A DNA stretch of 60,600 nt, counting the filler, from Hausera hauseri (lineage: Eukaryota): the NCBI GenBank assembly GCA_046269625.1. It is 11 parts of 11 records of this genome, joined end to end, with 100 filler letters (N's around TTAATTAATTAA, not from the genome) between each part and the next. Parts side by side here need not be neighbours in the genome. Positions count along the whole stretch, not along the records: positions 28,797 to 33,109 come from JBJURY010641108.1; positions 33,210 to 38,313 come from JBJURY010334270.1; 9 more parts are not named here. One strand, given 5' to 3'. The notes beneath the pieces were generated by a model that saw only the letters and a list, made by a program, of their open reading frames with translations, did no database searches and was not told the origin of the DNA. Below, one piece after another: positions 22,427 to 60,600 of the stretch (positions are counted from its first letter, which is position 1; each line of letters begins with the position of its first letter). The translations under genes were made by a program, and so were the position numbers.

Positions 22427-23429
22427 CTAAAATCACAGAGATATAAAGTATTTCGGAAGCCAGCTATCTTCAGGTGTCACTAAAACACAGTAGATGAGGT
22501 CCAATAAAAAGAGAACAATGCAAAGTCATTAAACAAAAAATACCAAAAATATGGCAAACAAAAAGAGCCGAAAATGAACATCTATTAGCATAAAGCAAAA
22601 ACACAACACAAATAAATCGGAGTATGTTAAAATGTTTCAGTAAACATGGGGAGTCTGAGGTACTACAAGCGCCCTGGCAACCCTCTACCTCAGCAACATG
22701 TTTAGTCCATACCTCTCCCGACCTCAAGGTGGTGGTTTCAGGCAATAGAAGAGAACCCTTCCTGCCTATAGTGACAGGCTCGGGATGGTCACCAACTTGA
22801 AGATGGACCACTTCAAGACGGTCACATTAATAAGTACTAACTGCACTGAGGAGCTTAATCAATCCTTTATGTAAGCATAAGGATGGCAGAAAGCTTTGCC
22901 AATCTCTCAAACAAGGCTCGTATAGAAGAATACAAACTCAGTGAATCAGAGTTAACAACAATAAAAATTCCCTTGCCAGCAGATAAATATTTTAACTCTG
23001 ATAAAAACCAAAAAATAAATTATTAAAGGATCCCACAACTGTAAATGGAAGACACAATTTTTTTTTTAAATACATCACAATCACAATCTGATAAAAACCA
23101 ATGAAATATTACAGAACAAGAACTGAATAAATAAAGTAATACAGAAATATATAAAACACACAGCAATACGTGAACTTACTACTTACTTGGTTGTAGAAAA
23201 ATAAAACATAATTACAACAATAGAAATAGACAATAGAATCAAATAACTAGAACTCACAGAAACAAACATACTGACTAATACAAAGAGTTTAAAGTTGTTA
23301 TACAAAGAAAAGTCTGAGATGAAATATACTATGGAGATGTTACATTAGTGTTTCAGCGTCACAAGTTGGCTTCCTAGTGATCCTGGCCCCAGCAAAGGAT
23401 TTCACTGTATGTTGTCCAGCTTTTAGTTC

Positions 23430-23760
23430 ATCTATCTGGTGGAGATACTGGCAAGAAATAGCCGCGCTAAAGATGGAAAATGGCATAGGAAAATACCAGC
23501 AAATAAAAAGAGGTGTGCGTCAAGGATGTGTCTTATCACCTGATCTGTTCTCCATATAAAGTGAAATGATAATGAATGCTGTAGACGACAAACAAGGAAT
23601 ATTAGTAGGAGAGCACAATATAATATAACCTAAGATATGCTGACGACACTGTATTGATTGCTACAATTGAAAAAGATCTACAAACACTTGTAGAGAAAGT
23701 AGTAGAAGAGAGTGACAGCAAAGGTCTCAATCTTAATCCATAGAAAACAGAAATAATGGT
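23430..23760 (+). mobile_element. Non-LTR (RTE-like LINE) reverse transcriptase fragment
   Basis: KRGVRQGCVLSPDLFSI and NLRYADDTVLIA motifs. Confidence 0.85.
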
Positions 23761-23860: not shown

Positions 23861-26036
23861 CATAATTTACTGGGACTAATGTCCAGTCCATAATGGTTTC
23901 TTTATCTAAGTCGGGAATCTCACTTTCCCTTTGGTAAACTTGATATTGCATTTGAAACATTATTTTAATGTGGTTGTTCACAGGAACGGACAGCTTTTCA
24001 GTCCTTTTGGACCTAAAAATTGGGGTTAAATAATTTCCTATGCTGAGGTTTTCCCAAGCGTATACTCCATCTGGTATTTCTTGTATTCCAGCGTTTTTCA
24101 CACAGAACATCGCTTCCTTTATTTTCTGATGGCTACAATATTCGGCCGTTACGAGTAGTCTGGAAAATTCTTTGTTCGTGGAAAAATGCACATTTTTTTT
24201 GATCTTTTCTTTTTCAAGACGTTCACTTCCCTGATAACGATATCGTTGTCTGATTTCCTCCTTTGGGTTTGAGTTCTAGTTTTCTTTTTATCTCTTCGGA
24301 GTGCATTTCTTTTCTTTTATTCGGGGTTTCTGTGCTCGGAGATTCCTTTTTTATTATTTCGTTTTGAGTTTCTGTCTTTTCAGGCTTTTTAAGTTTTGCA
24401 ACTACGGTTATCTTCGCCATTATTCTTCTTTTTGAATAAGTATTCGTATAGGGATAGTTTCCTTTTTCCCATGGAAAATATAGCTTCTTCTTCACCTTTT
24501 CGGTTTCTTTCGGATTTCTTCAGTACCTTGAATTCTTCTTGATCCTTGGATCTTTGCTTGACCGGCTCTGAATTTGGACTTTGATTGGTGCTGGGGTAAT
24601 TGTTTGTCGTGATGATTTGCTTCGGTTCAATTTTCTAAATTGTAACTAGGTAACTGTCCCCTGTTGTTGATTCAACCGTTCTGACGGAGAAATAAGGCCT
24701 AAAATGCCTTCTGTGTTTGAAACTTAATCCTTCGGGGTTTGTTGTGCTTGTCAAATTTTGTCTAGGGTTATCTGGAGTCCATTCGTGTTCCCATTTAAGT
24801 CCAGAATATATCTCTTAGATATTGGGAACGTTGACTCGCTGTCAAGAGTCTGCTAATTCGAACGTGTTCTCCACTCATAGCCTCCAACATTAGCTTAAAT
24901 CGGCCTTCTGCTGTCGGTGGTAAATAACCATTTCTTTTGCTGACGGTCTGTTCCATCTGCTGCATTACTACTGGGTAAGTCTCGATTTCTCTAACTCCAC
25001 TCACGTGGGTATCAGGTAATTTCAACTTCTTCATAATTCTTTCTATTTGATATCCAACAAGTATACTTCCATCCAGGCAATGGATTAATTCTTCGTGAAC
25101 TAATTCGCTGCCTCTGCCGTTAACTAATTGCTCCTTTTTGATTCCAGTAACTTCTGAAAAAGTTTTTCATACTTTCTTCTTAGGGCTAATGATTTCTGCA
25201 TAGAGTTCGGTTCCTCCTAGTTTTCGTATTGATACTCCAATTGGAACGTCATTTCCTTCGTCTGTTTCTCCGTAATTAACAGTAATAATCCTGGCATTTT
25301 TATCGTCTTGGACTAATTTGAAGGAGTGCAGGTGGTCGTCTTGATCATCTTCCGTTGGTCTTTGAATGAATCATAGTGGTGATAACTGAATAAATGGAGC
25401 GTATTCATAACATACTTCTATCATAAGTTTGACAGGCAGTGTGGCAACTCGAAATTCTAATTCACAATTGTAATGGTGGAAATCTGCGCTATTGATTAGA
25501 AAAGTACTGTATCTATGCTGACGTCTTTGTGCAGAATCCCAATTTTGATCTTTTAACCTATAATAGATTTCTCTGTCCGCTAAGTGAATAAATATATTCT
25601 GGTGATATACTGGTTCATATTGAACGAGTTGTTTTAATGCCTACGCTCGTACGTCCTTATCTTCTCTCATTGCGTATAATCGTACTGTCCGGTTCTCCTC
25701 GTTACTGCCTTTTAAGTTATTTGGGACCTTACGTGTTCGTTTGTATTCTACGAATTGCTTTCCGTGTAGTTCGTTATTGATTTGTCGGAATATTGACTTA
25801 GATTTAGGGATTAGTACTGTGGCACAATTCTGTAGGAAATCGTCGATGCTACGTCGGCTGTTTCCTGAATTAAATTTCTGGGCTTGATCGTCGATACTAC
25901 GTCGGCTGCTTCCGGAATCCATCTGGATTCTTATCAATCTAAACAATAGACAGTAAGGGTTAATCTTACAACAAAGCATAGTTTTGAACCAAAACCAATT
26001 CTTTGTTTGATGATAGAAGAACCCGACCTGTAATTG
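23861..26036 (-). pseudogene. Second copy of the long accessory ORF (homolog of 5243-7436), broken
   Basis: Shared blocks RRSIDxFLQ, IPxSKSIFxQINNEL, EIYYRLKDQxWDS, DFHH, LPVKLM, EVTGIxKEQLV, EYxSHQKIKEAMF. Confidence 0.8.
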
Positions 26037-26039
26037 TCA
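25955..26039 (-). promoter_or_regulatory. Candidate readthrough element UGA-CAA-UUA + stem-loop (copy 2)
   Basis: TGA CAA TTA CAG then an open frame into ORF 25641-25979; hairpin AACAAAG/CTTTGTT and TGGTTTTG/CAAAACTA. Confidence 0.65.
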
Positions 26040-27284
26040 GGTTATTTTATCATAGACATATTCTTGGGGTTCCCATACCCTTAATTCCCGTTCTACGATT
26101 TTAGTACGCTTAGTTCGACAATTTACGGTAACTAATCGAAATATCGCGATACATATTATAAATACAAGCGTTGACAGACTTACGATCATTACTATGGATA
26201 ATGTAGTCAACTTTTCGGGTTCATTAATCATTGTCTCAGTAGTAGTTTCTTGTCTTGTGTTTTTGTCTGCATGTGGCGCTATTTGCATTTCTGCTAAGGT
26301 TTGTATTGTAAACGTTTGACTCTGAGTATCTTTTGCATGTGTTTGGATTATATATTCCGTCTTGAGTTTTAACGAGTTACATTTGGCGTGATGTGAGCCT
26401 TTCCATAAGGTTGTTTTCACAGTTTTATACATCGTACGGCAATATATTTCGACATTATAATTAAGCTTCTCTTCTACTGAAAATAGTACTTTGTGTTGCT
26501 GTATAGAGCATTTTACAGGAATCTTAAGCCATTTCTTTTTGTTCATCTCGCTTGTTGTAGTAAGCTTACCAATGGTGCTTATTAGAGTAGTCCACTTCGT
26601 CGTCGTCGTTTCGATTGGAATTTTCCAGATTCCACTGTCTGGATGATATCTTCCTAAATAAATACTTGATTTATTTATTCTGATTCCATAGAGGTCAAAA
26701 TGAATCCTATATTCATGACCTGCTGCAATTTTACAACAAATCCTAAGATCTGTGATCTTTAGACTACAATATTCAGGCGTTGGACTTGACTCCTTTAATT
26801 TGGTAAATTGGATTGAGATTTCTTGTTTACTGGGCAATCTTCCTTTTGTGTCTATTTGGATACATTTGCCGTTCTTATTAGCAGAAATTTTGACTATATT
26901 TTCATTTAATACCCATTTGATGGGGTCCATCGATTGTACTATGTCATCGAGTTTCGTTATGTTAGCCCGTTCTTTAGCTGGTATGACTAATTTTACTTGC
27001 GGTCTTATTGCTCCTTGAGTGTGCTCATAGTTTTTGTAATACATTCGTATGGTAAAGGTATAAGTGTCTCCATAATTTACGACACAACAATTTTCTTGAG
27101 CTCCATATGGAAAATCACAATGAGTCATTACTCGTTTATTAGCGTTCCATAGGACTACTTGGTATCTTACCGATTTTTTCACGGCTCCGTCCGTCTTAAA
27201 TAACAGACAATCTCCTTTTGAGTCTATACTTTGGACTTTAAAACGATCTAAAGTGTTTAAATCATTTCTTTTTATTCTTATCAA
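26037..27284 (-). CDS. Retroelement-encoded type I membrane protein with about three FN3-like repeats, Thr-rich stalk, TM and YxxI tail
   Basis: Repeated strand motifs NYGDTYTFTIRM, AAGHEYRIHFDL, LKLKTEYIIQTHA; TM LSIVMIVSLSTLVFIICIAIF; tail YVYDKIT. Confidence 0.65.
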   Translation of the reverse strand: MIRIKRNDLNTLDRFKVQSIDSKGDCLLFKTDGAVKKSVRYQVVLWNANKRVMTHCDFPYGAQENCCVVNYGDTYTFTIRMYYKNYEHTQGAIRPQVKLVIPAKERANITKLDDIVQSMDPIKWVLNENIVKISANKNGKCIQIDTKGRLPSKQEISIQFTKLKESSPTPEYCSLKITDLRICCKIAAGHEYRIHFDLYGIRINKSSIYLGRYHPDSGIWKIPIETTTTKWTTLISTIGKLTTTSEMNKKKWLKIPVKCSIQQHKVLFSVEEKLNYNVEIYCRTMYKTVKTTLWKGSHHAKCNSLKLKTEYIIQTHAKDTQSQTFTIQTLAEMQIAPHADKNTRQETTTETMINEPEKLTTLSIVMIVSLSTLVFIICIAIFRLVTVNCRTKRTKIVERELRVWEPQEYVYDKIT

Positions 27285-27296
27285 TTTATTCTTCGT

Positions 27297-27722
27297 TTAT
27301 TGGCGCAATTGTTGTATTAATCCTCCTTGAGCATTGGCCTTCGGAATAATTGAGGCTTTCAGTGATAGTGATAAGACTATCTGTAAATAAGACATGGGTC
27401 TGGTAACAATAGACGAAGTTTTGGTTTTCTTTCCTTCTGTTTTCGGGTTCGCTTTTGTATCGTTAGTGCGTAATTGATATCGTTTTTCTGGCCTTATTTC
27501 CGTCTTCACCACTCGTTGTATTGACACAACTTCTTCCTTCCCGTTTTTACTAATAGAAACAGTGGTGGGTGTTACTCTGATAATTTCGTACGGTCCTCGT
27601 CCAGTACGCGTAAGTTTTAACGATGTGCCTTTCTTCGCTACGGGATAGTGTACATAAACCCAATCTCCGTTTCTTAGATCATGTGGTTTCGCGTTTTTGT
27701 CATACTGCTTCTTAAAGCTCAT
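27297..27722 (-). mobile_element. Gypsy integrase C-terminal (GPY/F) region followed by a signal-peptide-like segment
   Basis: KKQYDKNA..LRNGDWVYV..KLTRTGRGPYEII; then MSYLQIVLSLSLKASIIPKANA; same frame as 26037-27284. Confidence 0.8.
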
Positions 27723-28796
27723 GCAGCAGGACGAAGCACTTCTTTACACGCCTTAAGATGAGCCGCCGGAGCCCTGACCGTGTGAAAACCAGTATTGGTT
27801 TGACCGACATAAATAGGAGGCAGATTTAAGCAAAAAGCCCAACTCGTCTTTCCTGAGCGTGTTCCCTGAAGTAGTTGAAGAGGCCAGGAATAAGAATGCC
27901 ATTTGCATATTCACAACATGACTTGCCGGAGTCAAAGGAAACTTTGCCTCGCTATAAGCCTTGGGTGCTCGTGGTCCACGGTTTATTTTGTTTGTCTCCT
28001 AAATGCACCGCCGAGCACCTCAAAAATCGAAGATGAAAAATCGAAAAAAAAATATTAGACTTGCCAGTCATCGTCATCATCGTCATCATCAAGTGACTTA
28101 ACAATCACTGCTCGGGAAAAAAACAATGAAATCTACCAAGGCGGAGTTCCTCACTGGTGTCAATGAGATCGATTCTGATCCGAGGTTCTCCAGAGTGGAA
28201 GCGAACGGAGAACTTATGGATATGTATCCATGTGCAAAGATGTTGACCCTTCTACTCAACTAAAACCAACAAAACCAAACTAATAACAGTGAGAAGAAAG
28301 GTGGTATAAGTATAAAGCAACATCAACTATAACCTGACTTTCTAAACCTCATAGAAATCCTAATTCCTATTACTTTCTTCTATAAATGATTTATAAATTG
28401 TAGGTGTAAGTTATTGGGACAGATGACCAATGGACTTAATGCATGAGAAGCAAAACACAACTTGCATTTTACTGTTCAGTGAGCTGGTATAAGTTTTGAA
28501 ACAAAAAATGTCACCTTGCATTTCTAAAATCCCTCCCTAATCTACTCAAAATAGTTAGATTCTTTGTTAAGCCATATTTCACAAATTCCTTTGGTTCAGT
28601 TCATGTATTAACTGAGTTTACCGTTTTTTTTTTCTGTAATGGAACAATCTCATAATATTTGGCTTCTCAAAGAATATGTAATTTGCATAACTTTTCNNNN
28701 NNNNNNNNNNNNNNNNNNNNNNNNNNNNNNNNNNNNNNNNTTAATTAATTAANNNNNNNNNNNNNNNNNNNNNNNNNNNNNNNNNNNNNNNNNNNN

Positions 28797-32340: not shown

Positions 32341-34820
32341 TAGATGCGCACACACCCCCGGGGGGATGTGCCAGAATCCCCATTTTTACTGTACTACCGA
32401 CCGCACCACTAAACTTGCCGTTGTCGATTTTACCACAAACCGTTCATTTCCCGACGGTAACATCAATGGTTCATTGAAATTCACCACTTTTCCTTTCGCT
32501 TGCTTTTTGTCTCTTTGACCGACTTCCCACTTTTTTCAAACACGCGAACCCCATGTTTCCCACATCATTCGAACGCCCATACTATACTCTACACTTTCTC
32601 TTATCCATTCCTGCTCAAATTTTGCTTCGGGAAAAAGTTCGTTTTTTTTTTGCATTTCCCGGATTTGTCTTTAGCGACACGCAAAAACCGACCTTACCAT
32701 TCAACTCGCCGTTGTCGAATTGACCAATCAGCATGCGAGCGTTACGTGGTTGGTCAGTTGGTGCGTGGGTGGATTCCCACCCATGTCCTTGTTCCAGATT
32801 CATCTTTTTTCCTCTACTATCTTGTAATAAAAATATTGTGAATGCCATATTTTTGTAAATTTTTATATATATATGTGCCAAAAACATTTAAGTATTACAT
32901 CAACCTTTACATTAATTTTTATAAATTTCGTTAATATTTCTACCAGATACTTTATTGTTCAATGGAAAATAGTTAATAAAAATAATTTACTTAATATTAC
33001 AACACTTTTGTAGATATCGAAGTTGTTACAATATACATATCCCGTTTCGGTGAACTAAACAATAGTTACTTATATGATGTCATTCAAGGAACACTGCATG
33101 GGTAAAATTNNNNNNNNNNNNNNNNNNNNNNNNNNNNNNNNNNNNNNNNNNNNTTAATTAATTAANNNNNNNNNNNNNNNNNNNNNNNNNNNNNNNNNNN
33201 NNNNNNNNNCGAATTATGTCGGCCTTTAACATTCGTTCTACCTCTTTCGTTATTTCTGGTCTCAATGAATGAGGAGGTGGATACCATTTAGGCATTTTCT
33301 GTTCCTCTAGATTGATTTCATCGTTGGAACAGGGTTTCTTCCTTAACGGGAATTGTTAATCTCAGGGCTTTTGCTCTGCCTGTGTCTTCCTCATTTTGTG
33401 CGATTATTGACCGGTACTTACATAGTAATTTGTAGAACTTTCAATATGCCTAAGGAGAGAATTTGGTTTCAACATGAGTTGAAAATTTAGCACACTTGTA
33501 TGGTTTCTCCTCTATTGTCACTGCCGATACTCTGTACGTATGACCCAAGGTAGCATACAATCTTACTCAGTTTGGCGCGTTGTTCACTAATTTGATAGGT
33601 ATTCGTCCCGTCATTATTCTACATAGAATATTGCTAAACATAAGATTTGGGTCAATGTTCTCTTAAGGCTCGAAGTATATTGGGCGATCCTCGTCCTGTC
33701 GAATCTGTGAGAAAATTATCATTTCAGTTTTAGGCGGAATGTCTTTATCTACCGGAATCCATAATTCGCCCGATTTCCTTTCCTTTATTACTTTTGTCTC
33801 TTTTATAGTTTCGAGCACAATTAATTTTCCGTTATGCACATCGATTGCCATGCCCGGCATTTGTTTTAATATATCACAACCTAGTACTACATCGTCTGTT
33901 AACTGGTCCATTATCGCAAGTTTATGTTGAAGTGCTTGGCCCATCATATAAACGGTAGGAGTCCATTTAACTTTCGACTTCGATACTTGCCCAAATGCCC
34001 CTGCGCTACCTGGATCCGATAATGCGGGTGGACATTGCTGGTCTCGCAATGTGGTTGGTATAGATTCATATTTTATAAACGATTTTTCTGATCCGGTGTC
34101 GATTAATGCATACCCTTCCCAATCTTCGATGTGTATTTTAGCGAAGGATCTTTCTTCTGCTACTGTTCCGTAGCAATTTGACACTATCTTTGATTGTTTT
34201 ATTGTGGAGATTCTATATCCATTTATCGTTATTTCTGGCGATGAAATGATATCTTGTTTTAATTGTATTTACTCTCCGTTCGGGTACAAGTTATTGTTTG
34301 TTATTTTAATAACGCGACTGTCGATGAGCGGTTCCTGGAGTAGTAGACTCGAGATCGAACACATTTTTGGGTTTTCTCAGATTGTTGATTTCGATTCTAT
34401 GTGACGCGGTATTCTTTTTGAGTACAATATTCCGTGGTCGTTTTCGGTTGGTCTTTGGTTGATAACATTCATTTTCCGTAGTACTCTGTATTGTTTTGTT
34501 TTTTCATAAGGAACTTCATAATTAATGGGCTTTTGATAGTTTTCGGACCTACGTGATACAATTGAATTGCGGTCGCAGTCTTCATATACTGGTGATGTTG
34601 GTGGAATGATGGGTAATGGCGCGTTAATCACTGAATACATCTTGTGCATCTTCATTCTGGAGCTCACTTCTCTTCCCTTAGGCTCGTCAGCATCTGAATC
34701 ATCCTTTCGTATCATTGCTTTCTTATTTTTACGTTTATTGAGAATCGACGGCCCCCCTCGCCGTTTGCGATTATAGTACCCGACGTGGCGTTCTACGTCA
34801 TTTTTCCATCGGTTCTCTTC

Positions 34821-36650
34821 TTAGGCCTTGAGCATTTTCCCGAAGGGCGTGATAATTTCAGTCAAAATTTTGCAGGAAAATCCTGTTAAGTTGAATATTT
34901 TATAGCCGTTGATGATGGCTTGGATCACTGCTTTGATTACTTTGACTAAAAAGTAAATGGCTAGGAATCCAGATGCGGCTCGTCCAAAAATTAGAAACCT
35001 TCCCCAAATCTTATACAGTATTTTTGAAGTTACCCTTTGATAGTGATTAGCGCCGAGTAACGATTCCCATTTCACTTGGAAGCGGGTGTCATCCATGACC
35101 ATTGACATAGCCCAATTCAGTTCATAAGTTCTTTGGCGTGGAAATGCTAAGAATTGCTTAAATGCTTCTATGTCTTTTGGTCTATAAATTCCTTTATTAG
35201 CCGTGTCCTCAAACTTCTCTTCTGATAATCCCTTTATTAAATTTGTCCCAGTTAGTTTACTAGGGCCTGCGGCAGCGCCTCCATTGGGCAAACGTATCCA
35301 GTCGGTTCCACTACGTCGGAACATGGGTTCACCTAGACTCGTCTTACATTATTTCAGTACTGCTGGTTCGGTTGAGTTTGCCGATAATACTCTGGTGAGT
35401 GGCATCGCTAGTCTTGGCATATTCTCATAGATGACCGGTAATTCTTGCATACATCTTTTCTCTTCTACGTTGATTTGTACGTCTCTTTTCTCGCATGCAT
35501 ACGTTAATAGGACTTCTTCGGTATCTCGTCCAAAAACGTCTTCCTTCATTGGTATAATTGGTGATGCTAGTTCTGGGTTGGCATAGATTAAGGCCAGCTT
35601 GGTTCTCATGACTTCAGTATCTAATCTGCAGTCATTTGTTATCATTTTGTGGTATAGTTCTGCTATTCCGGTCTGTTCTTTGAAACAGAAATAGTCGTCT
35701 CGATTCTTGAGATTATCCTCAATCCGTATGTCTTGCGTTTTCAAATTATACGTTTTCATGTTGATTTCAGTTTCTGCCACGAAAAATGCTTCGTAATTTG
35801 TGGCATACATAATTACATCGCAGCGTGTAAACATTTCTTTTCTAAGAAACTTCAATCCATGTGCGTCCGATATCAATGTCGTCGGTGTGAGATGATCTAT
35901 AACATTTTCCCTTGATCTAGTATTTGTGTGTAACTTATCTGTATAACGTTTTACGCTTGTCTCATTAAACTTTAGTTCTTTGATTTTAATGAAGTTACAA
36001 TCTCTCTTGGAGGGTGGGCTCCATTCAACGACTGAACTTCTGAACGTGCAAGCTCCATCTTGAATGTGACAGTTTTGATTTTCAGTGAATAGCTTGGTAA
36101 CACTATAAAACATCGCTTTTAAAGATCTTAATTCGGTTTCATAAAAGTCCACGACTACTATTCCTCATTCTATTCTGTTCCCTGTGTCATATTTTCCTCC
36201 GACACAATAACCGGTATGCATGTTCAATTTTCCTACTGCCACTTTGTAGGCTCTAATTATTTTCTATTCTTAGGCTTCCAGTTCCATGCTGTCCCAGACC
36301 ATTTTACCTGTTAACCGGGCTCCTAAACAATGTTGTGTATCTACGTTCATTGGAATCAATGGAGTGGTCGGTTTAATTATTGAAGAATGCCCGTGCATAT
36401 TGCCACAATGAAAAATGCTGCGAGAGCTCCGTATCGTGCATTCTGTCGCATCCATTGCGATTAATTCACGTTGTTGATATAATATGTACCTTTTTTGTCT
36501 CGAGTTTATGAGGTCTCGCATCTTCGTATGTTTCTAAGTCCATTAAGGAATATTTCTGACCCACTTTGAACTTATCGCAATTATATACGGTAACTGCCCC
36601 TAACTGCTTCACTAGCATCATTATCGTCACCAAGTTGATTAACCAAATGG
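34821..36650 (-). pseudogene. Chuvirus-like glycoprotein (env-like), broken by stops and frameshifts
   Basis: Signal-like IWLINLVTIMMLVKQLGA then VTVYNC; ECTIRSSRSIFHCGNMHGHS; TM WGRFLIFGRAASGFLAIYFLVKVIKAVIQAIINGY. Confidence 0.8.
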
Positions 36651-36927
36651 ATTCGTTTTCTTTGTTCGGAGAGATATTTCGTATGATGTCTTCTAAGTTA
36701 TTAGTCCCTTTTGAATTATCCTCTTTTTCAAATAATTTAGTCCATTTTATTTCCTTAGGTACTCTTCTTGCAGCTTTTCTGGCTAATTCAATTGTCTTGT
36801 CAAATTCATTTTCCCGAAAAGGGTTAGTTTTTAATGCCAGATATATCAAGACTTTCCTTAATTCTTCCATCGTATTGTCTATCGTAATTCTTTCAATTAC
36901 TGTTTCCTCAGTGAGAGTGCTTTTAGA

Positions 36928-37767
36928 TTATTTAAATCGCGAAGTTCTTATCGTCCGGGTTATATTATATATTAGTCTTTCCTTCTCAGATAGTATGTCG
37001 CCTTGGAATTCGGTGTAATTGACTGTGCTTATTAGATCTTTCATTAGTTCAGTCAGTTTTTCATTATCGGAACTTGGAGTAGGTACTGATAGTTGTCTTA
37101 ATTCTCTAATCAGATCCGCGTTATAACCGATTTCCTTTATTTTTCTTGCTCTTCCGACCGGCCGTTTCGCTTTTATAGGTGGTGCGGTTTCGCTCAGCGG
37201 GACTATATTCTTATCGTATTGCGGTTTGTCCTCGTCCGTCTGTAAGTATTCGAAATACATTGAAGCAGCCTGAATCCCCATGATTCTTCCAACGCACTGT
37301 TCTGTATGTGCCTTTCTCATAGCTTTGTCTTTGGTTTGCTCACTGGCGATTATTGTTAATATTATCCTATTTTCCTCGAAAGGTATAATCCCTACGTCTA
37401 TTAAGGATTTTAACTTATCTAGTATCCTACCTCTGAAATATAGCCGATAATTAATTCCTTTCCTATCATCCTTATCCATTATCCGTTGTTTTATATCCGC
37501 AACAGTGGTATAAGTAGTGCACTCAAATTCCTCGTCATCCATCCATTCGGATGATACCTTTACTTTAAGTTGCGTTTTTGGTTTATTTCTTAGAAATTTA
37601 GCGTACTTCTTTATTAGGAGCTTGGGTACAGCGCTGTATGCGGTATTTTCACTAGATAGTTTGGTCAAGGTTGGAATCAATCTCCTTAACCTATCTTCAC
37701 TTATATGTATTTTCAACACATTGCTCAGTTCCTTTTCGGCTATTGTAGGATCAAGCAGCATTTGCAC
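36928..37767 (-). CDS. Family A upstream protein segment with an internal ubiquitin-like domain (about 37348-37575) and AT-hook-like motif
   Basis: QLKVKV..TTVADIKQRI..YRLYFRGRILD..SLIDVGI..IILTI follows the ubiquitin-fold pattern; KRPVGRARK. Confidence 0.7.
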   Translation of the reverse strand: MQMLLDPTIAEKELSNVLKIHISEDRLRRLIPTLTKLSSENTAYSAVPKLLIKKYAKFLRNKPKTQLKVKVSSEWMDDEEFECTTYTTVADIKQRIMDKDDRKGINYRLYFRGRILDKLKSLIDVGIIPFEENRIILTIIASEQTKDKAMRKAHTEQCVGRIMGIQAASMYFEYLQTDEDKPQYDKNIVPLSETAPPIKAKRPVGRARKIKEIGYNADLIRELRQLSVPTPSSDNEKLTELMKDLISTVNYTEFQGDILSEKERLIYNITRTIRTSRFK

Positions 37768-38413
37768 GTCAAATTTCGTCCTCTGGGTACCAATAAGTTA
37801 CTCAAAAATTTGTATTGAAATTCTTTGGCTTTGTTCGTTTAGACCTTGGAGATATTCATCACACTCGGCTTCATTACCTGCGTCAGGTAACTCAGTTCAT
37901 TAGCGCCGCATGTCCGACCTGGACTCTTTCGCGTAATTCTCTTATCTAAAGTTGCAATGTTTTCATTACGGATATCCTTAACCCGTCTCCATTTCCGCAC
38001 TCTTGTTGTATAAATGTTATTAGTCGGCACATTTCTTCTGGTTTTATCAAGGCTTTCTCCCGATAACTAGTCATTTCTGTGATTCTGTCTCTTTGTCATC
38101 TCTGTATAAATTCCATTTTGTTGTTCATTTCAGATTCCGTAAGGGAATACTTGTTCTTGAAAACTTCTGTTTCTCTCAGTAATTCGTTTAGCTCGCGTTG
38201 TCTTTTCTCGGAGCGTAACCGGGTTTCTTTTACCAAACGTATTCGATTTGTTAGTCGTTTGGCTACTACTTCGTCAATTTCTGCCATTTCTGTTAATAAT
38301 AGGATTAATTTGTNNNNNNNNNNNNNNNNNNNNNNNNNNNNNNNNNNNNNNNNNNNNTTAATTAATTAANNNNNNNNNNNNNNNNNNNNNNNNNNNNNNN
38401 NNNNNNNNNNNNN

Positions 38414-44000: not shown

Positions 44001-44436
44001 GAAGAAGTAAAAAGAAGTTCCTAAATCAATGAGGAAGTCTATGTGTGAGGTGTCTCCAAATAACATTTCAGCTTCCAACAGAAAGACTGCAGAGGCGGTG
44101 TCGAAACGGCCAGAAGTTTGAACGATATTGCCTGTACCAGAATGTGCCGTGGCATCTGGTGGCATTATTATTTTTTTTGAGACTTGGTAGAAAGAGGAGG
44201 AATGGTGAGTGCGAGGAGGCGAAGAAGGTGGAAAGAAACTAGAATTCCTTTTTTAATGTTTTCATCCTGGTACACATGATCTAGCCCGTGATTGAAACTT
44301 GTTGTGATAGACATAAATGAGGTTGTCCACAGCATACCGCTTGCTGTAGAACCAACAGCCCAAAAAACACTTCCTAGCATCCCTTCAAAATCGCGTGTGA
44401 TAAAAACAAGTCATGCGTCCGCCAGGTGAAATGGAT
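41040..44436 (-). mobile_element. Family C 3' part: gag end, PR, RT missing, RH, IN, Ser-rich tail, PPT, LTR start
   Basis: FLIDLGTS and ITGSDFL; TTDAST; CVACQKNK..HLDTVGP; poly-G PPT then TGATGT at about 41111-41125; RT replaced by AT-rich DNA at about 43130-43610. Confidence 0.85.
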
Positions 44437-44718: not shown

Positions 44719-45357
44719 TTTCTTTTATCTTTTGTTGTTATGCAAAGGTTGTACTTTTGAGCACACTTTTTGAAATCTGTATAATTCATGTTATTTCAAC
44801 TTTACGTTTTCAATGGGAGTTAAAAACGGCAAATATTTAAACAAAAACTCATTTCTTAATCTAATCAAATTCAACATCAAACATACCGATTTTTTTAATC
44901 AGATAAATTGCATAATTCTTACGTTTCAATAAGTGATGGATTAAATGCACACCAAGTTTAACTAAAACATTCACATGCAATTAGATTGTATACATGCAAC
45001 AATTAATTGATATCAACATATGACGAAATTTAATTTATCGTACTTATTCACTACTGACAGAAATAAGCAATATATTTATATACATTAAATGCTCTTTGTA
45101 TTCTGCAATTCGTTTTATTTAAGTCTGACTGTACTCAAAACTCTCATTGAAATGCGAGACTTTACATTGATCACACAAGTCAATATTAATGCTACTATTT
45201 GTTCTAAATTTGAAAAGAAATATTACTAATTTTCTTGATAAATGAAATGTTACTTTGTTATTTGAATCGGATTTATAAAATCAGTTATTATTGAATTATC
45301 GCAGATTTTTGAATTATCAATAAAAGAAGTTTATACTGCGTTATTTTTTTTTTCGTT

Positions 45358-48300
45358 ATGATTGAAAAGACAATGGTGTCAGTTAAATCAAATATAACAG
45401 TTAAATCAAATAGCACAGTTAAATCAAATATAACATATAGTATTAGAAGGAATTCAGAAATATGGGAAGTTAAACGGAAACTTAATCGTGTTTACTGGAT
45501 GCCAGACTCGATTTGTCACAAATGCTATGGATGTGACGAAGAATTTACTACCATAAAACGAAAACATCACTGTCGTATGTGTGGTCAAATATTTTGTTAT
45601 GGGTGCTGCAGTTTCGTACTTCCAGGATCGTTATGGAATTTATCGAAACCACAAAGATCATGTCGAAATTGTTTTCAGTCTTTTTATTCAAATGGAAACC
45701 TGAAAAATCACAATTCAGATTTTTTCCACCAATGTCAGAACGTCACATCTGAATTACATTCTCAAAAAACATTGCTAAACAATAACAACCCAACAAATTT
45801 TCCATCGCATACATCTGGTGATTCTTTAAACCGTACGCTGTCGTTTAGTTCTCAAGATATTGCTTACGTTAGTCAAAAACGAGATCCGCTATTGTCATTT
45901 GTTGACATTGATAGTTTGGAAACAGAATCTCTTGAAAATGTTAAGAGCACAGACGACCTTTCAACTATTAAAAGAACAGCCAGTTTGCCAAAATTAGACG
46001 CCATTGGAGGTGACTCATTTATTGAATGCCGGTGTGAAACTCATTTTGGAGATACTGCCTATAGACGTATTTGGTTATCAGTTTCAGTTAACACCAAATT
46101 TCCAGTGGGTTCTACTTTGCAGGTATTTTGTTTTACAGACTTTGTTAATTCGACGGATAAAGGTTTTTATAACGTTAATCAGTCATGTTTTAAAGATGGC
46201 AATCCAATCAACGTTACAGAATATGTTTTAAACTTTACGAGTCGTTACTTCACTTTGACTATTGAAAATGTTATTAGCAATTATCAAGGTTCTTATAGTT
46301 GCAACGTAGGTTTCTGTAATAATAATAATTATAATGATAACTCATCACGTTGTTATATTGTAAAAAGTTGCAATCTGCACATTTTAGTTTTTTCACCAAT
46401 GTTTGTCAAAAGATGTACTACAGGTCAACCTCTTATTGCTGGACAGCTGGTCTGGATTTCATTGACGGCTTATCCGGGGGAATACTGGTTCAAAACCTAT
46501 TCACGTTTGTCAATTACGGATGAACCAAAAACGTGGCATGTTCAACCACCTTTAGCAGATGGAACGTCATTAACAGCTAGTGAATTATTTGTTAATGTAA
46601 CTATTACTCTACCGGAATATCCGTTTGCTTATCCGCACGTAAACGTTTGTTGCACGATACAAAATGACGCAAATACACCTTTACGTTTAACATCATGCCA
46701 TTTATTTGATGTCATTCATTTACTTAAAGGTTCTATACAGACTAAACCGCCTGTGCATCATAATCAAAGAATTAAAGTTAATTCCACAATCGTATGTTAC
46801 GGACTTAGCGGATATCCACGTCCAACATATAAATGGATTCGTTTATCACCATCTGAGATATCATTCAGTGCTTTCCAAATTCCTAATTTAACATCCATCA
46901 ACGAAACACTTTACGTTGATAGTCGGAATACCGTTCGTGGTCAAATGTACATTTACCAATGCATTGCCAGACAACTTTCCCTTCATATTTCTTTCACCAT
47001 TCAGTTTGTTGTAAGCTTATGCAGTCATGAACTGATAATGGACCTGTTTGTTGCTGTCAATACGCAAATCCACACGACGTGCGGTTCTTCAAATAAGCAG
47101 GGTTCTGAATTTTTTAATGTTGCATACAAACCTTTTTTACAACGTTTCTTTTTATCTTTACCAATTACTCCAAAAAAGACACAATTGTATTTAATTCCAT
47201 TTTTAAATTTTGACCTGAAGCACAACGCAACGTTTGTTGAATGCTCCGACAATGTACTTTGTCCAAATATTTCCGACATTTTGCAATCATACCATAGCCA
47301 ATATAGGTCACGTTTCATTCGGCCATGTGATGGAATGGAATTGTCGTGCTCTGATGTGGGTTTAAAAAACCTATACTATACCATAAATAAAGGAAGAAAG
47401 AATATTCCAAATATAGCCATCTTGGGTCGTGATGAGTCAGCCTGTGTTCAATTTAGCTACGATAAACGTGATTTAAAACTATATTCACAACTAATACGAG
47501 ATGAAAATTTTCTGATTTGGCTTCATTATTTCAATAGAAACATTAAATATATTATTGATGAAGAACCACTCATACAGCCAAACAGAACATTCATGCTCGT
47601 GAATAATTCATTGAATATATCACATTTTGGAGTATGTTGCAATCTCACCGAATATGCCTCTTTGTTTTCAATCGATGGACGCGACTTTTTAGATAGCGTT
47701 TGTTCTAAGTCCGCCATATCAAAGGATCCGTTAGGCAATCCAAATTTAACAATTTACTCGAAATTAATTTATTTAAATCTCGTTGTTACAGTTGAGTGCA
47801 CTGGAAATCCTGGCTATCCGAATGGTTCATTGACCATTTGTATCGGTGAAAACAATGCTCCCGATTGTACGTTGATCTTAAATAACATTACAAATTACGA
47901 AGAGGATAAAGTCTTTAACGTTGTTTACAATTTAACATTAATTTCTCAGTTTGATAAGAAATGGGTCATATGTATTGCAACAAATGCCATTCAAACTGTC
48001 GGGTTCGATCAGTTTTACTTTACTTCTACTCAACTGAACTATGTTTATAAACCAATGAGTTTTATGTTCATTAGCATCTATCCAAAAATCATTACTGAAG
48101 GAAGTACAGTTCTTATCAATTGTTCATTCAGCATTCCTATTTCCCCACCGATACATGTCGTAACATTGTCAAAGGAAGGAAAATTTCCCATTACCTTATT
48201 AACTGGCTTTATTAAACCAACTCAAAGCGAACAGTTTTTTATGAATACTCTACACGTTTAGTTTAACCAATATAACAAACGTTTCAAATGATCGGGACGG

Positions 48301-54450: not shown

Positions 54451-55099
54451 AAGGTCTTCATTCAGAGATGATGATGATTATAAAGATAACTCTATTTCGC
54501 AGTGTTTGTTACATATTAACATAGCTAGAAACCATCGACCACATCGAATGTGAACAATTAGTCTTATGAGTCAAGTGAGAGAATGGCTAATCAGGGCAAT
54601 CCTGGCTCGCAGGACCCTCCCACAGGTTGGACATGNNNNNNNNNNNNNNNNNNNNNNNNNNNNNNNNNNNNNNNNNNNNTTAATTAATTAANNNNNNNNN
54701 NNNNNNNNNNNNNNNNNNNNNNNNNNNNNNNNNNNATTTCACAATCGACGATATTATATAATTAATCATAGAAAAACCGTCTCGTATAAATCTCGAAAAG
54801 GCGATATTGCTCCTAATATCGGAGACACTTAATAAAGCTGAATTAAAAGCCACAATCGGAAAAATAATTCTTGCTAGTAAAGCGATAATTCCGCAATATG
54901 GAAAATGGAGTGATCTATTTCTACAAAACGAAAATGAAAAGCTACTCGAGACAGAACCCACAAATGTAGAAAAAGCTATTCTGGAAATCACTCAAAATGT
55001 ATCTCAAGAAGAAATTATTCCCGTATTCATGGAGAAAATGACGGACCTATTACAGGAAGGAATCCAAAAAGTGATTATATAAAGTCCAATGGAATATTC

Positions 55100-58042
55100 G
55101 TGAAACTTATGTTACTCTTATTAATGTTATTTTTAAATTTTAAGAAGACTGGCACAATATTGGCTTATGATTGCAACAAAATATACAAAGGTAGCTACTA
55201 CTCATTGACGGATTTACAATCATGCCCAGATGCTCTTCCGAAAAAATTAGAGACTCAAACGCAGACTTTATATATTTATTATGATAAAACTATGCTACAC
55301 TTAGAGGGATTGGAATGCTCCCTACGTGCATCTCGTACTATATCTCATTGCGATCACTTACACCACGACACTTACATTAAGCCAACTACCGTACCTAAAT
55401 ATGTGTCAATAAATGCTACATATTGTAGAGATGCAGAAGAAACTCAACAGTTAAAATGGGGAGACATCTTATTGACCTCTACAAAAGCGCAAGTAACCCA
55501 ACAAGAGAAATGGATTGCTGGTTACAAAGTGAAAAAGAAAACTGTGGCGGAGGAAATTTTGATACCGGAAAAGGTACCAAGGCAAGCATAGTAGTGCATG
55601 ACCAATACGAGGTCGAAAATTAAGGATAATACCTATATTTTCGAGACTAGTACAAATTTAATGGTAAACGCATCCTTTTGTAAGTTGCAAATGGGACACT
55701 GTCATACTAGAACATCCAAAATAGTGTGGACACCTCCCACAAGTTATGATTGTACATTAGTACAAAGCAGAAAAGGAGAATTCAATGTTACTATCGGAAA
55801 ACGCTATGCTCGTCATTATGAGACTAATTGTGAGCATACCAATATTCAAGTTATTCCGGAAATGAAAACTCCTAAAATTGTGATATCTAAGGACATCAAA
55901 GGAGGAGTCAAATTTATACAACAAGATGTGATCACAAAATGCGGACAACAAGTATATAATACTAATTACGATAATTACTTCATATCAGAAAGAGACATCA
56001 TAGGTGCGGATAATGCTGCCACTAATAAAGCTCAGCTAGTGAACATTGTTGATTACATCGCAAACCGTGATGATTTTTTGTTTTACCTAACTCACAAATC
56101 CATTGAAGAAATATACTCTGAGACCATTCAGAACTTTTTTAGAGTGAATTTCGAAACCTTGAGAAACCGTTTGGCCATTAATGCATCTAACCCCGAAATG
56201 ATCACAATAACTCTACCGTTCAGCGAAGGAATTCAGGGCATAGTTTTAGGAGAACTTCTATACACATACAAATGTAAACGATTAGACCTACCCCTGATTA
56301 CTGGTACTCCCTGCTATTCTGAGATACTTGTTAAGTATAATGAAGAAATACAACATGTTCATCCGATTACCCGAGTACTTCTGGCACCACATACAATACT
56401 CACGGAAATTGAGAATTGTTCAGCACTGAATAAACCATTTATCAATTACGACAATAAGGACCTTTGGGTTAGATTACCGGATTGTGAAATGGTTAAAGAA
56501 AGACCTAATAAATTAACGATGGCAAATTTGAGTATTGCAATTAAAACCAATATGTTTACGGACGTGTCTAAATCCGCATTATACAGCAAAAAAGAAATTG
56601 ATTCATTCGTGAAGTTTCTAGCATATCCTGGACAGAGAGAGCAAATAGTAAATCGCGGAATACACCGAGTAATCGACGACACAGCTGGAGAAGAAAAATG
56701 GGACAGGTTATGGACGCCTGACGCTTATACTAAAATAGTTTCAAATCTGTGGTGTAAAATGTGGGGTGGATTCCTGAAATTCGGCCAAGTAGCCTCTGGG
56801 TTTCTGGCCATATACTTTATCATACAGACTTTGAAAGTCTGTATCAATTTCGTATTAAATGCCCATGAGATTTACAACTTAACGGGACAATCTCTAAGCA
56901 TAATAGGTGCTGTATTTTTCCCACTTGGTAAATTCATTAAAGCTTGCCATGAGAAACAATGGTTAGGTAAACTAGAAAAACATATTCATTATAAATCAAA
57001 GAAGCCTTTTCGAAAGGATACCCTGTCAAGTTCCGATAACGACAACGTCCCTGGATATTATACTACCACAGGGATTACAAAAGATACGAAAGGAAAATTC
57101 AGGTTTATGAAACCAAAGGAGAAAAATAGACCTAAATCACTTGTTGCGCCATATGAGAATAAAACAGTTCCCATTTGCATATTACCAATATTAACAGACC
57201 TAAAGGATCCGTATGGAAAAATGGAGGAGTATATAAAATTACGTAATTTACCAAAATATTCCCAGGTAGAGATACGTCAATCCATTATCACGCGAAACAT
57301 GGAAAACAACTGTGTAACATTACATACATCACCTAAGTTAGGTATACTGCCACCTATACCTTATCACCAAACAACCCGATTAATGAAAAATCAAGTAGAT
57401 GGAGAATCCAATTTAACGACCTCACAATCCGCTAGTAAGCAAAACACAACATTACAACGTGTAAGTTGCTACCCAGACTTGACTGAACTCAAAGAGGAAG
57501 TGAAAGGAGTGGACAACTATACTCAATCTTTGGAAAGTTTAGCGGTTATATTATCAAGCGGCACTACCCGATATTGTTCAGCTAGTTACAGCTTGATGGA
57601 ACCACATATAGATAATCATAACGATGTATTAACGTTTCTCAAGCTGTTATGGGATAATCGACCACACACAACAGTTCACTTTGATAGTTTTGACATGAAT
57701 GCCATGGTCGACATCGGAGCTAACGTTGCATTAATAGGAAAACATGCGATTCCGGAAGACTTACAACCTCAGATAAAATTGACTACTGAAGATTCGCCTT
57801 GTACGACGTCTGCCTTCCAACAGTGCAGCAAGCCTTATGGATATTGGAAATGTGAACCGTGGATTGGCGGACAAAGAATTAAAATAACTTTTGATGTAAT
57901 GACTACCTTAGATCCAAGATGTATTTTAGGTATGAACGTGTTACGAAAACTAGAAGGTGTTCACATAAATTTACAATCGGGATCAATTTGTCCAAATAAC
58001 CAAGATATCCCCTTAAATACAACAAAGCAGTCATTTGGGTAG
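55100..58042 (+). pseudogene. Chuvirus-like glycoprotein in frame with the aspartic protease (frame damage near 55530-55620)
   Basis: LMLLLLMLFLNFKKTGTILAYDC..SLTDLQSC..ECSLRASRTISHC; TM WGGFLKFGQVASGFLAIYFII; the same 814-aa ORF contains AMVDIGANVALI (57710) and ILGMNVL. Confidence 0.85.
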
Positions 58043-58470
58043 GACGTGTTGAGAAAATACCACCAAATTCCTGGATTGTTATACATTCACGGACGGTATA
58101 CCCAGACAATAGTGTAATTGAGTTTATATCAAAAACTCTTCGAAATGGACTTATATTACTACATTATTGTATTAAGGTAATTGGAGGAACGGTTTCAGTA
58201 GAAGTTTTAAACACCACTCCAAGATGTGTCACGATATTCACTAAAATAAAAATTGGACAATCCCTTGAAACTACACGCCACGAGAAATACGACAACAAAG
58301 TTGCGATCATCTCTACAGCGGAACAAAAAAATGTTGAAGACACACTTAATGTCGTTCTTGCTAAAGCCAAGAAAATGTTATCAGATGAATTTCTAGGGAA
58401 TTTCTCAGATCTCATTTATTAGTACCTTGATATTTTTGCAAAAAACGAAACGAATGTCGGACGAACAGAT

Positions 58471-59370
58471 TTGATCGAATTCCGATTATCATTTATTGTC
58501 GATCCCACAACCGAAAAAGAGGTAGATTTATTACGACAACCAATACCAAAATGGTATCCTCCTCCAAAAGCACTCCAAAGGGAAGTTGAGGTACAAATTC
58601 AATCAGTGCTCGATAAAGGTATTATAGAACCAAGTCAATCACCATGGCCCTCTCTCATAGTTATGGCCAAGAAAGCTAATACGACTAAATACCGCCTGTG
58701 CGTAAATTACGTTACCTTAAATAAACACCTTATGAATCACGCTTATCCAATCCCTCGAATACGAGACATCATTGATGAACTAAAAGATTGTAAATATTTC
58801 ACCACATTAGACTTGCAAAGTGGATTTTGGCAAATCCCCGTTGCCGAAGAGGATCGGTGGAAAACTGCATTCAAAACCCATACGGGAATCTATCAATTCA
58901 CACGCATGCCATTTGGTTTAAAGACGGCACCCACTTTCGTCCAAGAATTTATTCATTTAGTACTAAAAGGAGTGCGGGGGCTATCGTACATTAACGACAT
59001 CCTCATAGCCTCCAAGACATGGTCTGCACATTTAGTGGAATTAAAGAAATATTTGATTGGATCAGACTTGCTAAATTGAAATTAAACCCAAAAAATGCGA
59101 ATGGTGTAAGAAGGAAGTTAGATACCTGAAATTGGTGGTTTCCAGTAAAGGGATATCGACCAGCCCCGATTTAGTAGCTAAAATATTGGGATACCCCCTC
59201 CTAGCACCTTGCATGAAATGAAAGCCTGGTTAGGATTGGGAGGATTTTATGCTACTTTCATACCCGACTTTGCTGAAAATAACCAACCGCAATACAAGTT
59301 ATTAAGAAAGGACCAAAAATGGGAATGGACTGATGAGAACTAGAATGCCTTTGACGAGATAAAAAGACGA
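58471..59370 (+). pseudogene. Reverse transcriptase (Ty3/Gypsy)
   Basis: YRLCVNY..LN, LDLQSGFWQI, KTAF, MPFGLKTAP, YIND (mutated YxDD). Confidence 0.92.
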
Positions 59371-59735
59371 ATGGTGTCAGCACCGATATTGAGATACACA
59401 GATTTTTCGTTACCATTTATTCTGAAAACCGACGCTAGCATCAAAGCTATTATGGTCACCTATGGAGGACGAAGTTTAAATAAAGCTGAACGGAAATACT
59501 CAACCACTGAACTAGAGCTCTTAGCAATTCGAGATGGACTACGATATTATGAGTATTATGTTTATGGCCATAAAGTCATAGTATATACTGATCAAAAAGC
59601 ACTGTTGTCTTTACGTTCCGACAACAGACACGTATCAAGTCGACTGCAAAGATGGAAATTCGAACTTCTGAATTATGACCTTGAATACTGATATTGCCCA
59701 GATAAAGAGAATGTGGATGCAGATGCGCTTTCAAG
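59371..59735 (+). pseudogene. RNase H (Ty3/Gypsy)
   Basis: ILKTDAS, YSTTELELLAI, VYTDQKAL, RLQRW, NVDADALSR. Confidence 0.9.
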
Positions 59736-59976
59736 AATACCATACGCAAGAAGGGTAGCCGCGGTTCATAAACAATTAAATAGCAGAAACGACAAACTAC
59801 TGAATGAGAAAATTATAAACGATGTGTTACAAGAACAATGACAAATTCAAGGACGAAATATCAACACTACAAAACCAAGATCCCTTTATTGTTCAAATCA
59901 AACAATTAATCAACGGGCAGTTAGTTAACCCGATACCAAATCATATTCAAAAGTTTTATAAAAAAAACGAGTAAAT

Positions 59977-60600
59977 TTGGAAATTGAAAATGGGATTTTA
60001 CACATAAAAGCCGGAGAACGGAAACTGATAATTGTACCTACATTGGCCATCAATGCTGTTATGCTACAGGAGCATGATTCACACTTATCTGGACATCCGT
60101 CTTTGAACAAGACTTTGAAGCGTATAACTGCAAAGTATTATTGGCCTCAAATGAATAAACCTATTGAAGGATGGGTCCGTTTATGTAAAATGTGTGCTAC
60201 AAGAAAAGATAGAGGATTTCGGACAAAACCATTTCTAGGAAGTTTACCTGAAGCACGAAAGCTAATGGAAGTGTGTTCAATGGATATTGCCGGACCTTTC
60301 CCAGTTTCTGACTCAGGATACAAATACATTTTGTCATTTGTTGATTATTTATCGCGCTACGTCGTATTAGTACCATTAAAAAACATGACTAGTAGCACAG
60401 TTGCGGAAGCCATTTCTATGAAATATCCTACTTCATTAGCGAATTCTTTGAAAAAGTGTCAAAAATACTCCAATATAAACACCTGTTAACGACATCCTAC
60501 TATCCACAATGCAACGGTATGGTCGAATGGATGAATCGAACTGTTCAGGGCATACTTTCTACAAAGGTAGCACAAGATCAGAATGATTGGCATAATAACA
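59977..60600 (+). pseudogene. Integrase (HHCC + core), truncated by the window end
   Basis: HDSHLSGH..YYWPQM..CKMC..MDIAGP..VDYLSRY..YYPQCNGMVE. Confidence 0.9.

Follow-up and report, generated by a model that had tools for sequence, protein, structure and literature searches.

Why should a viral-type fusion glycoprotein precede retrotransposon enzymes on separate contigs of one genome, and does this order mark a family of elements or an accident of insertion or assembly? We analyzed a stretch of 60,600 nucleotides from Hausera hauseri (the window), which consists of 11 contigs with N spacers between them. Two of these contigs carry the glycoprotein gene (G): copy B at positions 33210-38313 (5.1 kb) and copy A at positions 54736-60600 (5.9 kb). 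The first-pass annotation had treated them as independent contigs, and they are indeed separated by N spacers and give no blastn match to each other.

On the minus strand, copy B encodes a ubiquitin-like domain, a helical domain, a signal-like stretch, G (PF24664), a transmembrane (TM) helix, a linker, a retropepsin, a dUTPase-like fold and the start of a reverse transcriptase (RT). Copy A, on the plus strand, follows the same order from the helical domain onward and continues through RT, RNase H and integrase. Both contigs end within the coding region, short of Gag and the LTRs, and both copies are decayed by stops and frame changes. We conclude, with a probability of about 85%, that A and B are decayed copies of two sister Ty3/gypsy subfamilies, in which G stands before protease, RT, RNase H and integrase, likely within one Gag-Env-Pol protein of the Burro type.

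Domain organization of the two copies

The upstream part of copy B (37348..37785, minus strand) comprises a short helical stretch followed by the ubiquitin-like domain (37572-37348). The latter matches Pfam ubiquitin at E 6e-4 and Rad60-SLD_2 at E 0.019, in each case under the curated cut-off, and aligns with the pre-G stretch of a related library protein, P0158 (E 8e-9), as well as with P0011 and P0022. A helical domain (36703..36912) precedes an internal signal-like hydrophobic stretch with the VYNC motif (36577..36648), recognized by its hydropathy (1.79 across 19 residues at 36648-36592). The VYNC at 36588 is predicted to be the start of mature G; at this site, a hydrophobic stretch and [AG][YF]DC are seen in the relatives too. 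The signal region is in frame with the upstream ORF, and a frame change then follows near 36510.

The fusion glycoprotein of copy B (34764..36497; PF24664, E 1e-51) is of the Monjiviricetes type (chuvirus/gB type), contains 5 in-frame stops in its 578 codons, and includes HCGNMHGHS at 36410 and a TM helix at 34991-34935 detected by hydropathy. It is followed by a linker of about 200 codons (34155..34763) with two stops, which is in frame with G and the protease and has no recognized domain, and by the retropepsin (33855..34154; Pfam RVP, E 9e-6) with DTGS at 34100-34089, whose model resembles Ddi1 and retroviral proteases (Z 12.2, rmsd 2.7, 107 aligned). Between protease and RT (33510..33794), structure matches to the model suggest a dUTPase-like fold with middling scores: among the 14 fold matches listed that cover model residues 130-237 (Z 5.7-6.7, rmsd 3.3-5.6, 84-102 aligned), 12 have dUTPase or dCTP deaminase titles. 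G, linker, protease and this domain share one frame, interrupted by stops. The RT start (33210..33334) lies past a further frame change and is cut by the contig end at 33210. The order from signal through VYNC, HCGNMHGHS, TM, linker and DTGS to the RT start is present on the minus strand of copy B as the first-pass annotation had described it. The motif words themselves are confined to copy B, and their counterparts in copy A read AYDC, HCDHLHHDT and DIGA.

Copy A begins with the helical domain, a frame change and a signal-like stretch (55079-55159), together at 54738..55159 on the plus strand. Its G (55157..57004; PF24664, E 1.5e-53) has a TM helix at 56789-56845 and, according to tblastx frames, a short out-of-frame piece near 55540-55620. 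The linker and retropepsin occupy 57005..58042, the protease itself lying at 57653-57988 with the catalytic motif DIGA; it matches RVP under the cut-off (E 0.0018) and a local protease profile with E 2e-16. The region 58030..60600, interrupted by stops and frame changes and cut by the end of the window, encodes the post-protease domain and then RT, RNase H and an integrase with its zinc finger and core. Its Pfam matches (RVT_1, E 7e-20; RT_RNaseH, E 1e-19; Integrase_H2C2, E 3e-16; rve, E 3e-4; also RT_RNaseH_2) complete the Pol order protease, RT, RNase H, integrase, of which the copy B contig holds the protease and the start of RT. None of the Pfam families that we take to mark BEL/Pao elements matched the copy A Pol at E 0.1.

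In both copies, Env is located upstream of the gypsy Pol and in frame with it, with stops in copy B and without them in copy A, where an ORF at 55595-58042 runs through 815 stop-free codons from the middle of G to the protease.

Protein similarity between the copies

The two G proteins are identical at 185 of 590 positions (31%, E 1e-96). They had been thought to align mainly at cysteines and short blocks, which does not hold: the alignment is full-length, and in a second alignment cysteines make up 10 of 182 identities and each full 50-column block contains 7-23 identities. Each ectodomain lies between two hydrophobic stretches, signal-like and TM, and judged by sequence is of chuvirus/gB type in both copies. 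The match between the copies extends beyond G: 24% in the protease (127 aa, E 4e-12), 18% in the post-protease domain (153 aa, E 6e-7), 39% at the RT start (41 aa) and 29% in the helical stretch that precedes the signal (96 aa, E 6e-5). It thereby exceeds both the originally proposed extent, 33210..36870, and the features listed there.

The linkers are the exception. As noted earlier, they have no recognizable likeness (best pairwise E 0.17), and the distance from G to protease is about 230 residues in both copies. An origin of the linkers as decayed extra proteases found no support, the best match to a profile of 31 protease copies having E 0.065. The linker is likely a fast-drifting spacer.

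Six-frame translation of the window contains the word PKWYPPP at two places, 33292 (minus) and 58546 (plus), each time at the RT start. That the copies have it in common at this place is correct; its supposed unusual character is not, since it is a lineage variant of an ordinary RT-start motif. As a special motif it was rejected, the relatives carrying Q[RK][AP]Y[RPK] at the same place. The word together with a short insertion before it is common to A and B and absent in all seven RT-bearing relatives. A full-text literature search for PKWYPPP gave no match.

Relatives with unbroken frames

An HMMER library search yielded 150 matches. G followed by protease in one unbroken frame was found in 14 of them, including 12 of the top 18, and six extend to RT; none of the 150 has protease or RT ahead of G. 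Pfam analysis of 25 of the 150 placed G, protease and RT within one ORF in P0008, P0009, P0014, P0019 and P0023. The stretch between the envelope anchor and Pol holds two to five retropepsins in 8 of the 14 relatives, one of which adds ankyrin and zinc-finger modules. Other searches with copy A were negative: word-based protein searches with the G-protease ORF (longer proteins; residues 1-460) gave no match, viral contigs searched with the RT-start ORF gave no relative, and PDB sequences gave no match to the G-protease protein at E 1.

Since the same order recurs in 14 of 150 matches and the reverse order in none, misassembly or a one-off insertion is very unlikely, as the first-pass annotation had argued. 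The contigs are short and repeat-rich, which could invite an assembly artefact or a chance nesting of a viral glycoprotein insert beside gypsy fragments, and no piece listed from the sequencing run described below (run X1; all pieces under 500 bases) spans from G to protease. Yet the same order stands on two contigs without DNA likeness, the junction in copy A lies within the 815-codon stop-free frame, and the same fusion of G and Pol is present in unrelated public assemblies. Such an accident is hardly credible.

Is G also joined to Gag? Gag marks ahead of G were detected in P0011 (zf-CCHC, above the cut-off) and in P0023 and P0016 (both below it), and in these three proteins a single ORF runs from the Gag marks into G. 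In copy B the upstream ORF continues into the signal, Gag itself lying off the contig. An element of the same domain order could instead express Env separately from Gag, through a separate start, splicing or programmed frameshifting in the manner of three-ORF GAG-ENV-POL elements, so that only Env and Pol are fused. This would agree with the frame change close to the signal in both copies (near 55040-55080 in A and near 36510 in B), with the presentation of GAG, ENV and POL as ORFs in the accessible text of PMC13524379, and with several relatives that start just 130-200 residues ahead of G, possibly through cut gene calls. However, the frame-change sites differ, each is in frame in the other copy, and P0011, P0016 and P0023 join Gag marks to G. 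We consider a separate Env unlikely and prefer one continuous Gag-Env-Pol protein.

Phylogeny of G and Pol

In the G tree (35 rows), A and B are sisters (100/100) within a group (100/99) to which all 14 G rows of polyprotein type belong; the 19 G rows that lack protease and RT fall outside it. Trees of the protease region recover the same pair with 100/98 and, on 10 rows, with 100/99 under a mixture model and with 98/96 after removal of the PKWYPPP block. The sister relation in both G and the protease region fits one shared origin. A and B are long branches and come from a single genome, so their union may owe something to shared bias. The comparison of G and Pol-side trees upholds the A+B pair, whereas deeper splits partly differ: three of seven are common to the two trees (three of five when RT-RNase H-integrase is compared). 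Each split that differs lacks a star in one tree or both, with one exception: P0009+P0158+P0160 carries a star in the G tree but is not recovered for the protease region. Deeper exchange may thus have occurred.

These differences, the lack of an A/B linker alignment, which would be read as different junctions, and the description in available parts of PMC13524379 of GAG-ENV-POL elements as not monophyletic in the POL tree would suit a scenario in which two gypsy lineages each captured, or swapped in, a related glycoprotein independently. Against this stand the sister position of A and B in both trees, the upstream helix common to them, PKWYPPP with its preceding insertion in both copies and in none of the seven RT-bearing relatives, and the equal distance of about 230 residues from G to protease. 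Independent captures therefore appear highly improbable, and a single origin of the two sister subfamilies is preferred. The layout had been called an old, maintained family trait: the sister copies and the 14 relatives among 150 matches bear out a family trait, whose age is read from divergence only.

Abundance in a sequencing run

In run X1, copy B drew 9829 contigs and copy A 4034, in each case across 30 of 30 bins and mostly less than 95% alike; this is one run from one study, which may be the window's own source. These counts and the low likeness fit two multicopy families. Among the pieces listed, one bridges the linker and protease of copy A (57471-57731). Differing sites fell at third codon positions in 4 of 31 cases for B and 5 of 26 for A among the sites listed, which come from a selected subset of the 40 rows given out of about 730 and 710. 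Since the rows are so selected, they give a weak hint of coding constraint, and in the families only.

Elsewhere in the window, a TDRD9/spindle-E piece is about equidistant from proteins of arthropods, molluscs and echinoderms; the best 120 of its 1270 matches name no flatworm.

Comparison with known elements

An envelope placed before the enzymes is an already published layout, as the accessible parts of PMC6431247 and PMC13524379 document. The Burro/GYPSM1 elements of planarians are gypsy-like LTR retrotransposons of giant size (Arkhipova and Yushenova 2019, PMC6431247). According to the sections of that paper at hand, their Env matches mononegavirus fusion glycoproteins and lies in frame between gag and pol, a Ubi2/SUMO-like domain is found upstream of Env and a BCL2-like motif just ahead of it, a dUTPase-like domain separates protease and RT, the cargo includes MATH, BIR, AIR1 and ankyrin, and decayed copies also exist.

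By that description, the ubiquitin-like domain and the dUTPase-like fold of copy B sit at Burro positions, and the helical domain of both copies occupies the place of the BCL2-like motif; the comparison is one of described layout, and the 5-6 kb contigs show no MATH, BIR, AIR1, ankyrin or Gag part and no LTR. The Ubi2/SUMO-like domain upstream of Env has a weak counterpart in copy B, through the sub-cut-off Pfam matches and the alignments to P0158, P0011 and P0022. For the helix before the signal, a three-row profile gave no match to Bcl-2, hhalign a probability of 7.6%, and the best Atlas match (0.87) is unnamed; its model is weak (pLDDT 55), with no Bcl-2 chain among 50 listed fold matches. 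Relative P0012 shows a weak Bcl-2 match just ahead of G (E 1e-3).

GAG-ENV-POL errantiviruses of the Ty3/gypsy class with an HSV/gB-type Env are reported from Platyhelminthes, Nematoda and Bryozoa (Chary and Hayashi 2026, PMC13524379), and share with our copies a Ty3/gypsy Pol behind a glycoprotein with signal and TM. As far as its accessible text goes, that report connects the gB type with the chuvirus-like glycoprotein, lists only intact elements, among them nine from flatworms (six in Schmidtea mediterranea at 1-215 copies), gives Env pairwise identities of 20-30% as usual within groups, obtains its insect elements with a chuvirus-like glycoprotein from a GAG-POL-ENV search, and contains no discussion of in-frame fusion. 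Anakin of mosquitoes (Dezordi 2020, PMC7642597), as described in the available part of its report, is likewise an LTR retrotransposon with a chuvirus-like glycoprotein, but its Pol is of BEL/Pao type, in contrast to the gypsy-type Pfam families in the copy A Pol. For an arthropod set, the consulted portion of a later study gives no clear glycoprotein capture by gypsy elements (Dezordi 2023, PMC10084718).

Proposed expression and significance

With Gag and the LTRs placed beyond the contig ends by analogy to the relatives, the ribosome would first make a cytosolic Gag with the ubiquitin-like and helical part. Through the internal signal sequence, G would next enter the ER, where signal peptidase would cleave just ahead of its first cysteine motif. 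Transfer would end at the TM helix, so that linker, protease, dUTPase-like domain, RT, RNase H and integrase would stay cytosolic, and the retropepsin could release the cytosolic enzymes by cleavage. On an enveloped particle, G would serve as a class III fusogen.

More speculatively, and in our estimate rather improbably, A and B may form a deep separate Burro-type branch, marked by PKWYPPP, in a non-planarian host. The stretch between anchor and Pol would then be an exchangeable slot, in which multiple retropepsins, which would share among them the cleavage of a membrane-anchored Gag-Env-Pol, have been replaced here by unrelated spacers of equal length.

As two sister subfamilies with one origin, A and B would enlarge the published group of gypsy elements with an envelope by two subfamilies, whose G and Pol have stayed linked despite protein divergence to about 30% identity.

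Domain organization of the two copies

The Monjiviricetes fusion glycoprotein (G; PF24664) was identified in copy B (contig 33210-38313, minus strand; Pfam E 1e-51) and in copy A, the comparison element (contig 54736-60600, plus strand; E 1.5e-53). Hydrophobic stretches flank G in each copy, signal-like on one side and a transmembrane helix (TM) on the other, and Pfam places a retropepsin after G in both; copy A continues through RT, RNase H and integrase in the gypsy order. The order described for copy B by the first-pass annotation (signal, VYNC, HCGNMHGHS, TM, linker, DTGS protease, RT start) was recovered in full. Copy A shares the order, with motif words of its own: AYDC, HCDHLHHDT and DIGA stand in place of VYNC, HCGNMHGHS and DTGS of copy B. 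PKWYPPP, reported as common to both, occurs twice in the window, once at each RT start.

The copies are joined by a collinear chain of tblastx matches (combined E 3e-91), with no DNA-level match between them by blastn. As had been noted, the linkers (between G/TM and protease) are unalike, giving no alignment (best E 0.17). The G proteins were said to align mainly at cysteines; instead, 185 of 590 residues are identical (E 1e-96), and cysteines make up only 10 of 182 identities.

Copy A retains an 815-codon stop-free ORF from mid-G through TM and linker to the protease. The G, TM, linker, protease and next domain of copy B share one frame, with five in-frame stops in G, two in the linker, none in the protease and four after it. 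Frame changes lie near 36510 and 33340 in copy B, and near 55060, 55540-55620 and 58030 as well as inside Pol in copy A; because their positions differ between the copies, they look like decay. Both copies are dead.

A structure model of the copy B protease region (pLDDT 66, alignment of 9 rows) matched retropepsins with Z up to 12.2. Its second domain matched dUTPase-fold proteins at Z 5.7-6.7; of 14 rows that span this domain, 12 bear the title dUTPase or dCTP deaminase. Ahead of G, copy B encodes a ubiquitin-like domain that scores below the Pfam cut-off, matches the relative P0158 at E 8e-9 and is also alignable with P0011 and P0022. The helical stretch that follows is common to copy A (29% over 96 aa), and the relative P0012 has a weak Bcl-2 match at this place; four tests on the window's own stretch gave no clear Bcl-2 match. 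The start of copy B (38311-38000, minus strand) is a charged, coiled-coil-like frame without a Pfam match; in the corresponding region, Burro, a giant gypsy-like element of planarians, has an Smc-like part (PMC6431247).

Relatives with protease and RT behind G

A HMMER search of 1.84 billion representatives returned 487 matches at E 0.001, of which the best 150 were examined using local profiles built partly from the same proteins. A protease follows G in one ORF (polyprotein-type) in 14 of these 150, including 12 of the top 18, and RT is reached in six; 136 have G without protease or RT, and none of the 150 has a protease or RT ahead of G by these profiles. Pfam, applied to 25 of the 150, confirmed G, protease and RT in a single ORF in five proteins of 1251-3243 aa and found Gag marks before G in three, one above the cut-off. 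The domain order is identical in two cluster members, which are 3003 and 4844 aa long. The ten relatives whose origin was traced come from assemblies in ENA and NCBI; a bacterial genome bin is given as the source of one, which is likely a stray contig.

Two to five protease copies lie between G and RT (or the protein end) in 8 of the 14 polyprotein-type relatives, a set that includes two pairs from shared clusters. These tandem retropepsins, most with a DTG motif, follow G in P0007, P0009, P0010, P0011, P0013, P0016, P0158 and P0160, accompanied by ankyrin and C2H2 matches in P0160; P0009 and P0160 have additional proteases behind RT. PKWYPPP is found in none of seven RT-bearing relatives, where Q[RK][AP]Y[RPK] occupies its place.

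Phylogeny of G and of the Pol side

The G tree comprised 35 rows: the two window copies and, hand-picked from the matches, 14 polyprotein-type rows and 19 in which G comes with neither protease nor RT. Copies A and B group together (100/100; two support values per split) inside a 100/99 group containing all 14 polyprotein-type rows. They also pair in ten-row trees of G (100/99) and of the protease, dUTPase-like domain and RT start (100/98), the latter giving 100/99 under a mixture model and 98/96 without the PKWYPPP block. The G and Pol-side ten-row trees share three of seven splits (A+B, P0009+P0160, P0019+P0023); the others differ, most of them with weak support, which limits the demonstrated congruence to the tips. 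The full RT tree includes copy A alone because copy B supplies just 41 RT residues. The sister position of the copies and the unbroken relatives of identical order bear out the reading of the layout as a family trait, one that is old as judged by divergence.

A probable second membrane protein downstream of integrase

In contig 23861-28696, at 27743-26037 (minus strand), the frame of an integrase C-terminal piece (42% over 89 aa to P0158; MLVIN_C E 0.008) continues through a signal-like stretch and about 380 further residues to a TM, forming a second membrane protein. Compared with the tails of five relatives, this protein gave no clear match (best E 0.019). At least two hydrophobic stretches, about 250-400 residues apart, lie behind integrase in the unbroken relatives P0008, P0009, P0019, P0158 and P0160, which suggests a second membrane protein within the same ORF.

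Sequencing run and other contigs

One sequencing run contains the stretch (share 0.36) and may be the window's own source. Of its contigs, 9829 match copy B and 4034 match copy A, mostly at less than 95% identity, and all 30 of 30 bins are covered in each copy; we infer that these numbers fit two multicopy families. No piece spanning G to protease is among the run matches listed.

The window's 11 contigs, each 4-7 kb and separated by N spacers, are in the majority retroelement debris. Contig 17831-23760 (minus strand) carries several host-gene pieces in a row, all broken and apparently poor in introns: one that is P-type ATPase-like by its translation, a TMEM131-like Ig domain and a TDRD9/spindle-E helicase. 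The helicase is about as distant from arthropod as from mollusc and echinoderm proteins, with no flatworm named among the 120 matches listed of 1270. A Gag-like stretch comes after these pieces, and the opening 650 bases of the contig resemble 38663-39313 at 78%. In an unbroken 982-codon ORF at 45313-48261 (plus strand), a FYVE finger (E 1e-16) precedes Ig-like matches that score below the cut-off; this cytosolic finger is oddly paired with cysteine- and glycosylation-rich sequence, and the ORF is possibly a fused gene mosaic. A degenerate tandem array occupies 51310-52240; it matches itself at 77-81% identity when shifted by multiples of ~75 bases. The 74 bases that open one contig (38414-38487) recur unchanged at its end (44363-44436), as either a tandem unit or a loop in the assembly.

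Proposed working and known systems

From the layout and general knowledge of viral polyproteins, we propose a working for elements with the order, homology, shared frame, sister position and unbroken relatives observed here. One long protein would be produced, an internal signal would thread G into the ER, signal peptidase would release the G N-terminus and the TM would halt transfer. Pol would remain cytosolic and be excised by the retropepsin, and G would be the class III fusogen with which an enveloped particle enters cells.

The layout is a real feature and is already published. As far as the contigs extend, the domain order of copies A and B is that given for Burro (PMC6431247); by analogy, they would work like Burro-type elements, and formal membership is likely, the likeness being one of description and the contigs ending short of Gag and LTRs. 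GAG-ENV-POL elements with gB-type glycoproteins are known in Nematoda, Bryozoa and Platyhelminthes, with nine flatworm elements in the supplement (PMC13524379); compared by description only, these may already cover copies A and B. Anakin, a mosquito element with a chuvirus glycoprotein, is described as BEL/Pao (PMC7642597) and does not fit the two copies. Two small points are new: a branch of two subfamilies that have PKWYPPP as their mark, and a variable slot between G and Pol in the relatives that is often filled with proteases.
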